From assembly GCA_964354805.1 (NCBI GenBank), contig CAYHBD010000035.1:22829-86828 (forward strand): a DNA stretch of 64,000 nt, read 5' to 3'. The translations under genes were made by a program, and so were the position numbers. Positions 51,652-54,195 of this stretch are shown in pieces (position 1 is the first letter of the stretch; every line of letters begins with the position of its first letter). This stretch comes from an uncultured archaeon. Lineage in GTDB: Archaea; Iainarchaeota; Iainarchaeia; Iainarchaeales; GCA-2688035. The notes beneath the pieces were generated by a model that was not told the origin of the DNA, did not search any database, and was given only the letters and a program-made list of their open reading frames with translations.

Positions 51652-54063
51652 ATGCCGGAAAAAGCCGTAAAAGGCGTTTTGCTTGATGTTGACTACGAAA
51701 ACAAGGAAACCCATGAGGGAAACAGGTCAATCATCAGGCTTTTTGTGAGGACGGAAAAAGGGATAGAGATATTCGAAGACAGGGCATTCAAGCCGTACTT
51801 TTTTGTGACAGCAAGCAATGCAAAAGAGGCGGAGCAGGCTCTGGGCAAGGCTGTGTTTGCTGAAAACAGCAGGATTGCCGCAATAAAAAGAGTGAAAAAA
51901 ACAAATGCTGAAAATGTTCTGCTGCTTGAATTCAACAGCGTTGGCGATTTGACAAACGCAAGGCAGGGCGTTGAGAGCATTGCTGTAGTGCAGCAGCGCT
52001 TCGAGTACGACATACCTTTTACAAAGCGCTATTTGCTGGACAAGCAATTGCAGCCAATGGGCACAATTGAATTAACGGTTGAAGGCAGGGAAATAAAAAA
52101 GGCGGAAAACATTCAGGCTGAAGAGCCGAAGCTTAAGATTGGCGCATTTGATTTGGAAACCCTGAGCCCGGGCAGGTTCAGTGACCCGAAAAAAGACCCA
52201 ATACTGATGATTAGTTTCGTGTCACCTGACCAAACAGTTGTTTTAAGCTACGGCAAAAAATTTTCGCATCCTGCCGTTAAATGTTTTGAAACAGAAAAAG
52301 AAATGATTGCCGAATTCATAAGGCTGGTGAAAGAAAGCGATTTGGACATCATAGTAACATACAACGGCGACTCGTTTGATTTCCCTTACTTGAAAGAGAG
52401 GGCAGACAAGTTTGGGTTGCAGCTGCAAATTGGCAGCGATTCAAGCGAGCCAAGGACAATAAAGAAGGGAAAGGACAGCGCAGTGAAACTGCATGGAATG
52501 CAGCATCTGGATGCTTACAGAATGCTTTTGTTCCTGAACAGGTTTGCTGTAGTGAGCCTGATTAAATTTGATTTGGAGGGCGTTGCAGCATCGCTTTTTG
52601 GCGAAAAGAAGGTGAAGCTGTTCAGCGACCAAATAAATGAGATTTGGGGGAGCAGCAAGGGATTGGACGAGCTGGCTGATTACTGCAAGGAGGACAGCGA
52701 AACTGCTTTGAGGATAAGCGAGCAATACCTGCCATTGCTTGTTGAGTTGTGCAAGCTTGTAAGGCTGCCATTGTTTGAGGCAGGCAGGGGAAATGCAAGC
52801 ACATTGGTTGAATATCTTTTGATGGCGAAATGCGCCAAAAGCGGAACGCTCACGGCAAACAAGCCTAGCGACAGTGAAACACAGCAGAGGCTGCTGCAGA
52901 TGTACAAGGGCGGGTATGTGAAAGAGCCATTGCCTGGATTGCATGATAACATCGCTGTCCTGGATTTCAGTTCGCTGTATCCTACAATAATAATCAGCCA
53001 CAACATCAGCCTTGAAACAGTTAATTGCGGGCATGCTGAATGCAGGGAGAAAAACAGCGGGCCTAACAAGCAATGGTTTTGCATGAAAAAAAAAGGCATG
53101 ATTTCAAGCATTCTGCAGGAATTGTTTGAGAAAAGAATGCGGATAAAAAAACAGCTGCGACAGGAAACAGGAAAAGAACGCCTGCTTTTGAATGCAAGGC
53201 AGCAGGCTTTGAAGATTCTGATGAACAGCTTTTACGGTTACCTGGGCTATAGCAGAAGCAGGTTTTACAGCAGGGAGTGCGCTTCTGCCATTACTGCATG
53301 GGGAAGGCACTATGTGCAAGAAGTCGGTGCCGCTGCGGAGAAAGCGGGATTCACTGTTTTATACTCGGACACAGACAGCGAATTCTTGATTATTCCGGAA
53401 GGGAAAAGCAAACAGGATGTGGAAAAATTTGTTGAAAAAATAAACAGCGAACTGCCTGATGTAATGAACCTTGAAGTGGAGGGCTTTTACAAAAGAGGCA
53501 TTTTTGTCACAAAGGACAGCGGCGAGGGCGCTAAGAAAAAATACGCATTGATTGATTTTGAGGATAGGCTGAAGATTGTCGGCTTTGAGTATGTGAGGAG
53601 AGACTGGGCAAGGATTGCGAAGGAAACGCAGAAAGAGGTTATTAAGGCTGTGCTGCAGGATGGAAGCAAGGAGAAGGCAATTCAAATAATCAGGGGCAGG
53701 GTGGCTGCGCTGAAGGAAGGGAAAGTGCAAAAGGAAGAGCTGGTTGTTTTAACCCAAATCAAGAGGCCTTTGAATAAGTATGAGAGCATTGGCCCGCATG
53801 TTGCTGCAGCGAAAAAAGCTGTTGCAAAAGGCAAGGAAATCGATGTTGGAAGCGTCATTGGCTACATTATTACCAGGAGCGGAAAGAGCATCAGCGACAA
53901 GGCGCAGCTGGCTGAGTATGTAAAGGAAGGAAACTACGATGCAGAATATTATATCCATAATCAGGTTTTGCCTGCAGTAATGAAAATCATCAGGGAATTT
54001 GACATAAGCAAAGAGGATTTGCTGCAGGGCGGCAAGCAGGCAAAATTAGCATCTTTCAATTAA
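51652..54063 (+). CDS. polB: Family B DNA polymerase with 3'-5' exonuclease
   Basis: ExoI FDLET, ExoII YNGDSFDFPYL, ExoIII YCKEDS, motif A DFSSLYP, motif B KILMNSFYGY, motif C YSDTDS; C-terminal PIP-box-like QAKLASF; no intein. Confidence 0.97.
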   Translation: MPEKAVKGVLLDVDYENKETHEGNRSIIRLFVRTEKGIEIFEDRAFKPYFFVTASNAKEAEQALGKAVFAENSRIAAIKRVKKTNAENVLLLEFNSVGDLTNARQGVESIAVVQQRFEYDIPFTKRYLLDKQLQPMGTIELTVEGREIKKAENIQAEEPKLKIGAFDLETLSPGRFSDPKKDPILMISFVSPDQTVVLSYGKKFSHPAVKCFETEKEMIAEFIRLVKESDLDIIVTYNGDSFDFPYLKERADKFGLQLQIGSDSSEPRTIKKGKDSAVKLHGMQHLDAYRMLLFLNRFAVVSLIKFDLEGVAASLFGEKKVKLFSDQINEIWGSSKGLDELADYCKEDSETALRISEQYLPLLVELCKLVRLPLFEAGRGNASTLVEYLLMAKCAKSGTLTANKPSDSETQQRLLQMYKGGYVKEPLPGLHDNIAVLDFSSLYPTIIISHNISLETVNCGHAECREKNSGPNKQWFCMKKKGMISSILQELFEKRMRIKKQLRQETGKERLLLNARQQALKILMNSFYGYLGYSRSRFYSRECASAITAWGRHYVQEVGAAAEKAGFTVLYSDTDSEFLIIPEGKSKQDVEKFVEKINSELPDVMNLEVEGFYKRGIFVTKDSGEGAKKKYALIDFEDRLKIVGFEYVRRDWARIAKETQKEVIKAVLQDGSKEKAIQIIRGRVAALKEGKVQKEELVVLTQIKRPLNKYESIGPHVAAAKKAVAKGKEIDVGSVIGYIITRSGKSISDKAQLAEYVKEGNYDAEYYIHNQVLPAVMKIIREFDISKEDLLQGGKQAKLASFN

Positions 54064-54072
54064 TAACCAAAA

Positions 54073-54195
54073 GAGTTTTGCATAAGCAAGGAAGGAGTTT
54101 GGCAAAAGCAATGGAAACATTTTGCAGAGTTTGGCGTAAGCAAGGAATACCTTCTACAGGCCTGCAAGCAGGCGAAGCTGGTGTCATTTGGCTAA
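54073..54195 (+). repeat. Three stacked diverged copies of the polB 3' end
   Basis: 54073 EFCISKE; 54095 EFGKS; 54127-54195 EFGVSKEYLLQACKQAKLVSFG* vs gene EFDISKEDLLQGGKQAKLASFN*. Confidence 0.9.

Follow-up and report, generated by a model that had tools for sequence, protein, structure and literature searches.

What leaves several stacked copies of a gene's own end directly behind its stop codon? The question is raised by polB, the gene for a family-B DNA polymerase at 51652..54063 (+) of the window, by which we mean the whole stretch of 64,000 nucleotides (nt) analyzed here, C35:22829-86828 of genome G000. This genome is a metagenome-assembled genome (MAG) of 1.38 Mb in 49 contigs, 88.5% complete, and the host of the window is a DPANN archaeon. 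Behind polB stand three copies of its 3′ end, referred to here as echoes A, B and C, of which C is full length. The original prediction read the divergence of echo C as a signature of purifying selection, took it to have been a working polB C-terminus for much of its history, and saw in the repeated events at one position either the reuse of an attachment site or a reservoir of alternative PCNA-binding tails. In this study, we describe the polB stack as an ordinary member of a class of gene-end echoes that runs through this genome, and as an ordinary mutational scar. The polB echoes are probably non-functional, decaying copies of the polB 3′ end, generated by short local duplications across the stop codon.

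Anatomy of the polB 3′ end

The polB protein has 803 amino acids (aa) counted from ATG, the open reading frame (ORF) itself opening at TTG 51643, and matches Pfam DNA_pol_B (3e-69) as well as an exonuclease domain. There is only one copy of the gene in G000, and proteins related to its product are named 'Candidatus Diapherotrites archaeon' DNA polymerase by their sources. The protein ends in ...REFDISKEDLLQGGKQAKLASFN, followed by tandem stops, TAA TAA, at 54061-54066. The final 22 codons and the first TAA form the live tail, T (53995..54063, +), which translates as EFDISKEDLLQGGKQAKLASFN and stop and carries at its C-terminus KQAKLASF, a putative PIP-like (PCNA-interaction) motif. Next comes the 9-nt spacer TAACCAAAA (54064..54072, +), whose bases 1-3 are the second in-frame stop, and then the echoes. 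Echo A (54073..54094, +) is a 22-nt copy of nt 1-22 of the tail unit, with 19/22 matches to C and 17/22 to T; echo B (54095..54126, +) is a 32-nt copy of nt 1-32, with 24/32 matches to C and 21/32 to T; and echo C (54127..54195, +) is a decayed copy of the full 69 nt, with a TAA of its own and the conceptual translation EFGVSKEYLLQACKQAKLVSFG. Echo C is in frame with polB but behind the tandem stops, and echo B is 1 nt out of frame with respect to C. The two full copies, T and C, start at 53995 and 54127 and hence lie 132 nt apart in direct orientation, with A and B in between; the 63 nt that separate them are entirely spacer or partial copies.

The echoes and their common 5′ boundary are real. 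As originally predicted, the stacked copies begin at the same place, A, B and C opening at GAGTTT and T at GAATTT. The matches of A and B to C were reached by 0 of 200,000 random genomic windows, and for the motif GARTTTNNCNTAAGCAARGA the window has 3 occurrences where 0.07 would be expected. GAA or GAG opens all four copies, and GAG comes after the T unit and the C unit alike. At positions 3, 8 and 21, A and B have the base of C and not that of T, and the same holds in part for positions 18, 24 and 27; they share GGC, AAG and GAA with C but retain the older A at position 10, where C has G. This combination indicates that both were copied from the echo lineage after its split from T and before the latest changes in C, and the gradient of differences, from T-C (33%) through B-C (25%) to A-C (14%), points to the same order of events.

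A genome-wide class of gene-end echoes

For each long open frame of G000, the stop and the 75 nt before it were compared with the 300 nt that follow. Downstream copies scoring at least 40 were found for 58 tails, against 1 in the reversed control, and the signal is specific to stops: 34 of 1095 open frames carry it, versus 4-11 when the query ends 60-450 nt upstream. With the stops forced into register, a score of at least 20 was reached by 105 frames and 3 controls, and a score of at least 24 by 76 and 0, respectively; after restriction to a greedy gene set, 58 stop-aligned echoes are left. These echoes are 12-66 nt long and span the last 4-22 codons. Their stop-to-stop distance is mostly 40-70 nt (overall some 40-130 nt), with a median period of about 55 nt. 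When direct repeats of period 24-200 nt were sought without bias, 195 pairs were obtained, against 2 in a shuffle, and these include 46 tail echoes, 14 gene-start echoes, 30 intergenic pairs and 94 intragenic pairs, 82/94 of the latter with a period divisible by 3. Echoes are thus concentrated at stops, starts and spacers, as expected of copies that survive outside coding DNA, or in frame. Three-copy in-register stacks are found at other, unrelated genes too, and examples of echo loci are C9:147846-149198 (-), C9:108355-108999 (-), C42:87799-89370 (-) and C9:118306-120711 (+). We estimate the size of the class at roughly 50-100 gene ends, together with some gene starts, which amounts to 5-10% of genes.

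The divergence of the class as a whole was compared with an in-place model in which the gene copy remains under purifying selection and the echo drifts, with kappa of about 3-4 from the measured ratios of transitions to transversions (176:98 in echoes and 38:25 in intergenic repeats). Over the 58 echoes, 45% of the differences are synonymous, versus 39-43% predicted by the model, with no heterogeneity from echo to echo (Fisher P = 0.84). The class needs no past of its echoes as working gene ends.

Two further tail echoes lie in the window. The one at 1323-1364/1378-1419 is a full tandem unit of 55 nt that includes post-stop bases; in the other, at 7653-7710/7764-7819, a 58-nt tail is recopied 109 nt downstream, with 53 nt of unrelated filler. 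At G000:C16:23286-23331 and at C9:82690-82746, a dispersed repeat of hairpin/triplex type (GCCTTTCTTT..AAAGAAAGGC..GAAAGAAA) is located between identical gene-tail copies of 27-37 nt; elsewhere in G000 this repeat comes after tRNA genes. The FEN1 gene (G000:C10:43104-44168, +) also shows an echo of its C-terminal PIP-like tail, in which the QSRLSQWG of the gene reads QSRLDQGG, at 53 nt from stop to stop. Given how frequent echoes are, the presence of one at a second PCNA client is probably due to chance. Loss of FEN1 was itself considered as the origin of the burst of duplications and discarded, the gene being present.

A model of duplication across the stop codon

A duplication that straddles a stop codon leaves the gene intact, the first copy keeping the stop and the second becoming intergenic, and would thus survive where an intragenic duplication would be purged. 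In the case of polB, the first event may have involved some 78-80 nt flanked by GAG/GAA and made up of the 22 codons, their stop and a further 9-11 nt, with T and C originally adjacent. Later, in-register copying or trimming of the echo lineage in its 5′ part would have given B and then A; in-register copies are what would be expected of array expansion by misalignment. The 22-nt and 32-nt pieces could come from truncation where GA or G microhomology is available, as in the Asp codon GAC and at the CAG/G junction, and no site-specific enzyme would be required. Afterwards, the gene copy would have changed almost solely at synonymous sites and at its variable last residue, while the echo lost invariant residues. 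We infer both this order of events and slippage as the mechanism behind it.

Divergence between the live tail and echo C

T and C differ at 23/69 nt, distributed as 6, 4 and 13 over codon positions 1, 2 and 3; their overall identity is 67% and their longest identical run is 11 nt (GCAAGCAGGC plus flank). On recount, the coordinates and codon counts that had been reported for this echo proved exact: 5 codons are identical, 10 differ only synonymously and 7 non-synonymously, without any indel and with TAA at the end of both. Nei-Gojobori estimates are about 1.0 for pS (14 of 13.7 sites) and 0.17 for pN, and a random placement of these 23 differences leaves no more than 7 codons non-synonymous with P = 2e-4. 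The polB echo is the oldest and longest of the class, and it is exceptional once saturation is counted.

Echo C is decaying, as it breaks the family motif at invariant residues, where Asp has become Tyr and Gly-Gly has become Ala-Cys. The string QAKLVSF, which had been pointed out as an alternative PIP box, is indeed present in its conceptual translation, but it lies behind TAA TAA and the Asp and Gly-Gly that should precede it are lost. The spacer that adjoins echo C (54196-54275) is about 80% conserved between genera when compared with L011:3906-3985, the respective polB proteins being only 66% identical. The intergenic DNA of this region is far from a neutral clock.

polB tails and flanks in relatives

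For comparison, we used 40 genomes of the same family and order plus 36 metagenome loci, making 76 polB loci. polB is present in 39 of the 41 genomes of family and order (G000 counted), with identities to the G000 protein of at most 68%, and the metagenome loci reach at most 74% over the C-terminal third. A family tail motif, E[LF]xxS.EDL[LI]xGGKQxxLxxF, is conserved. It ends in a PIP-type Qxx[LIVM]xx[FYW] at the extreme C-terminus, represented by KQAKLASF in the live tail and by GGKQxxLxxF/W in nearly all relatives. No copy of the gene's own tail was found downstream of polB in the relatives whose 3′ flank is on the contig; the best local scores of tail against downstream DNA are 18-39 there, versus 52 here, and the highest of them fall within the next gene. 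Likewise, no insertion at the polB 3′ end was detected in the 40 relatives and 36 metagenome loci, the next gene coming directly after polB where the flank is present. Elsewhere in G000, the search for a second copy of the tail gave a single near-match, located within a gatC-like gene and attributable to chance.

Four closer relatives (P0002, P0123, P0125 and P0122) belong to the same 90% cluster, the polB of P0002 being 91% identical. All four have a T-type tail that varies only at its extreme end (ASFN, ASFNQ, ASFG), and a C-type tail is found in none of them. Echo C contains the genus-specific QAKL..SF and so groups with the resident tail of the genus. A degenerate scan of 185,579 species representatives gave no polB ending in KQAKLVSFG, only six bacterial chance matches.

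The last residue of the tail deserves separate mention. The end of echo C, TTTGGC plus stop, and its distance to the promoter-like box described below align with the live polB end of G012. As P0122 and many family members likewise end in Gly, the Asn that ends the live tail is probably the derived state. The polB of P0002 ends in ...ASFNQ, with one extra residue (Gln). Judging from the protein, P0002 would read a sense codon, as if CAA, at the position of the first TAA and stop one codon later; if so, the second TAA has been a real stop in a sister lineage.

Other variation in the polB proteins lies away from the tail. P0125 is longer by an insertion of some 41 aa (844 versus 803 aa), located in its N-terminal/exonuclease region, with the tail unchanged, and several more distant relatives have inteins in polB (ORFs of 1,219-1,396 aa with Pfam intein domains).

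Echoes in other lineages

Gene-end echoes are scarce or undetected in the nearest genera sampled. None was found in 0.40 Mb of the relatives' polB loci, where about 15 were expected, and none was detected in 0.2 Mb of the nearest genus (G009); a 0.135-Mb sample of G004 contains one or two. Tandem Repeats Finder gave 47 repeats per Mb of period 30-65 here, versus 7.5, 10 and 37 per Mb in the relatives' polB loci, G009 and G004, respectively, other period classes being equal between G000 and the relatives' samples.

One echo outside G000 can be followed between species. It lies at a metallo-beta-lactamase-fold gene of G004 (L111:1177-2079, -), consists of 32 nt plus a 9-nt spacer, and is common to G013 (L124), though not found in three other species of that genus. 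Echo and spacer are 32/41 identical (78%), against a pS of 0.71 and a third-position identity of 0.52 for the gene itself. This echo has been either constrained or repeatedly lost. Since G004 and G013 were assembled independently, its presence in both speaks against an artefact, and its conservation next to near-saturated synonymous sites shows that echoes can evolve several times slower than such sites.

Features downstream of the echoes

An A/T-rich conserved box, aatctttttatttaaaaagg, is located at 54210..54229 (+) and aligns with the DNA right after the polB stop in G012, G009, G004 and G018; it may be the BRE/TATA-type promoter of the next gene. That gene (54258..56531, +; Pfam PKD_4) encodes a secreted PKD-domain protein and is syntenic in the nearest genera, starts homologous to it coming after polB in relatives. 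The genes that neighbor the polB locus are those for the PKD protein and an M24 peptidase. For the polB 3′ region, there is no Rfam match above noise, the predicted fold is no better than that of shuffled sequence (z = -0.15), and a bacterial-type scan found no terminator-like site. The motif GCAAAAGCAA of the echo at 54102-54111 is exactly complementary to codons 10-13 of the downstream gene (54286-54295). Its counterparts in A and C pair less well with that gene, and the complementarity is probably a matter of chance.

Discussion

Several observations weigh against duplication in place as the origin of the echoes. Most echoes have the form copy-filler-copy, with a filler that is unrelated to the DNA after the second copy and not homologous to the DNA before the first one either; fillers mostly have no second copy in the genome and show no clear coding character in the frame of the echo. 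Young full-period tandem duplications number only 3. Plain tandem duplication, in consequence, does not cover the whole class. At polB, the microhomology arms are only 2-3 nt long (GAG), too short to exceed chance. Moreover, the synonymous sites that separate T from C are saturated (pS about 1) while pN is 0.17, and an in-place model with equal rates yields at least 10 synonymous-only and at most 7 non-synonymous codons with P ≤0.003 over kappa 1-8, and with P ≤0.0013 at kappa 3.5.

As regards the copy-filler-copy form, other origins were tried. Templating of the fillers from nearby DNA or from elsewhere in the genome was discarded, as they are mostly unique. Off-target integration of CRISPR spacers, retro-copying and Ku-type end joining were set aside as well: Cas1, reverse transcriptase and Ku were not found in this 88.5%-complete genome.

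The excess of synonymous differences between T and C may be explained in three ways. The echo may be slow, a possibility backed by the echo of G004 and G013 and by the conserved adjoining spacer; if it evolves 4-7x slower than the synonymous sites of the gene, P rises to 0.03-0.08. There may also be an effect of ascertainment, in that old echoes are noticed only if they have decayed little, synonymous change in the live copy being bounded. Alternatively, T and echo C may descend from two coding alleles of the genus. The synonymous-rich pattern on which the original prediction built its purifying-selection signature is therefore real, but a past of echo C as a working tail does not follow from it, because selection acts on one of the two sequences compared, that of a live gene, and because a slow echo and ascertainment bear on the same figures.

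The descent from two alleles implies a different history. A diverged allele of the genus would have been spliced in out of register by homology-facilitated illegitimate recombination (HFIR), and the resident ...SFG tail, once displaced, would have become echo C. The donor polB would have a tail in ...ASFN and contribute about 12 nt of its 3′ flank, being joined through a homologous crossover inside polB and an illegitimate one at the GAG of the resident tail; in a variant of this scheme, an in-place duplication came first, and ordinary recombination with an allele of this kind replaced the live copy afterwards. We regard this history as possible, if rather doubtful. Saturated synonymous sites with a low pN are what two coding alleles of one genus would show, and the polB proteins of the genus are 9% different, yet alike in the amino acids of their tails; the rejection of equal-rate duplication in place also speaks for it, although the echo of G004 and G013, conserved well above synonymous sites without import, indicates that a slow echo gives the same signature, and recombination should be inefficient between alleles that are saturated at synonymous sites. 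The last residue fits such an exchange, with a Gly/Asn polymorphism in which echo C ends in Phe-Gly, encoded by TTT GGC as in live G012, and the genus member P0122 in ...ASFG. The ...ASFNQ of P0002, read from the protein only, would be expected if it shared an xAA-TAA context after T. Both HFIR and stacked displaced 3′ ends are documented (PMC5361080), but separate local events would still be required for A and B. On the scale of the class, divergence needs no allelic component (we estimate it at about 10% of the differences at most), and a syntenic donor cannot account for the several echoes whose copies are identical but whose fillers are unrelated. It is unlikely, and slightly more so than for polB by itself, that the polB stack and a subset of the other echoes are fossils of out-of-register recombination with diverged alleles of the same genus. 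Were this true, C-terminal displacement, known from toxin loci, would act on core housekeeping genes of a DPANN archaeon, and the echoes, by keeping previous resident alleles, would record how often, and from how far, core genes are overwritten. Whether echo C was once a working tail lies between these two histories, of which we consider duplication in place the probable one and the splicing of an allele a rather doubtful possibility.

The remaining explanations fare worse. The reuse of an attachment site, put forward by the original prediction, supposes that GARTTT was the repeated target of elements carrying a polB tail as replacement, whose later loss left a stack of att scars. Integrative elements that enter the 3′ ends of genes and bring a replacement end are well established, and the copies do share a 5′ boundary. 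The copies are only 67-86% identical, however, with no identical core, and there is no integrase, transposase or foreign DNA between or beside them, the only two tyrosine recombinase genes of the genome being on contigs C45 and C10. No occupied site was found among the 76 related loci, no viral contig carries the tail (the motif matched 23 viral contigs, all by chance and in unrelated frames), and in-register stacks also occur at unrelated genes. With echo C grouping with the resident genus tail and no relative showing an insertion at this place, the findings run largely counter to the prediction, and the attachment-site explanation is close to refuted. Retention of the echoes for a function, be it as spare PCNA-binding tails accessible by deletion or as a nucleic-acid element (a 3′ untranslated region or the upstream region of the next promoter), we find very improbable, if a little less so than the attachment site. 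That C is in frame with polB and retains QxxLxxF, that the echo of G004 and G013 is 78% conserved despite near-saturated synonymous sites, and that FEN1, another PCNA client, also has a PIP-tail echo, can be quoted for it. Yet C is without the invariant Asp and Gly-Gly and has two stop codons upstream, A and B are fragments only, the region has neither an RNA family match nor a structure better than that of shuffles, and with 5-10% of genes of all kinds affected, two PCNA clients are expected by chance. The idea of a reservoir of PCNA tails is further contradicted by the T-type tail of all four close relatives and by the absence of a KQAKLVSFG end among the species representatives. The least credible origin is an assembly artefact, in which two strain variants of the region were joined in series. 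The genome is a MAG in 49 contigs, and periods near 50 nt resemble common k-mer sizes; against this, indels, in-frame stops and non-synonymous changes set the echoes apart from live strain alleles, a serial join cannot produce partial copies of the kind of A and B, the class is anchored on stop codons, and one orthologous echo is present in two independent assemblies.

Taken by itself, the polB echo has no particular message for the biology of polymerase and PCNA or for that of mobile elements. What makes it valuable is that it is the longest and oldest readable case of a class that marks 5-10% of genes. In an uncultured DPANN lineage, this class amounts to a natural archive of mutagenesis by short duplications, and possibly of allele replacement as well. 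The case calls for caution too: a dN/dS-like signature obtained from a live gene end and a dead copy is by itself no proof of a former function of the copy.

Comparison with known systems

As with att sites in the 3′ ends of genes and tRNA genes, the end of polB is duplicated in direct orientation and the gene remains intact. Unlike at att sites, there is no element, integrase or identical core, nor an occupied/empty polymorphism in relatives.

Insertion with long target duplication has been described for bacterial restriction-modification cassettes of kb size, flanked by 46-bp repeats that overlap gene 3′ ends (PMC2853133); the mechanism is unknown, and no archaeal case passed the screen of that study (Furuta et al. 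2010, PMC2853133; Nobusato et al. 2000). The likeness of the G000 repeats to these lies in a direct orientation, a length of tens of bp, the lack of further copies in the genome, a frequent overlap with a gene 3′ end and the absence of a recombinase. At polB, in contrast, the 'insert' would be 9 nt plus partial copies. This process fits better the two other G000 loci at which the dispersed hairpin repeat stands between duplicated tails.

The C-termini of Rhs, CdiA and type VI secretion system (T6SS) effectors are displaced by HFIR (PMC5361080), and Rhs/CdiA-type displacement is also attributed, through that source, to Jackson et al. 2009. The resemblance lies in orphan 3′ ends that are stacked downstream from a common junction (A, B and C at GAGTTT), with the old ends decaying. 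Those loci, however, are polymorphic toxins under diversifying selection in which each event brings cargo such as immunity genes, whereas polB encodes a housekeeping polymerase whose incoming and old tails would encode the same sequence. Nothing foreign lies between the polB copies, only TAACCAAAA, which is in part similar to the flank that follows echo C.

The closest known process is tandem duplication mediated by microhomology (MTD), which is reported from bacteria, archaea and fungi and shows a depletion in coding DNA (PMC13167724), although the arms at polB are too short to prove membership. The polB stack departs from it in that these arms measure 2-3 nt only and that its full copies are now split by partial ones, and most other G000 echoes depart from it by their unrelated filler. 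The density in G000, about 47 repeats per Mb of period 30-65 and 5-10% of genes, is far above that in relatives. In common with MTD and replication slippage (PMC13167724), the G000 echoes would be short head-to-tail copies of single-copy DNA with a few shared bases at their borders; they are depleted from coding DNA by selection and can expand in register to three copies, in a process that has been reported in archaea.

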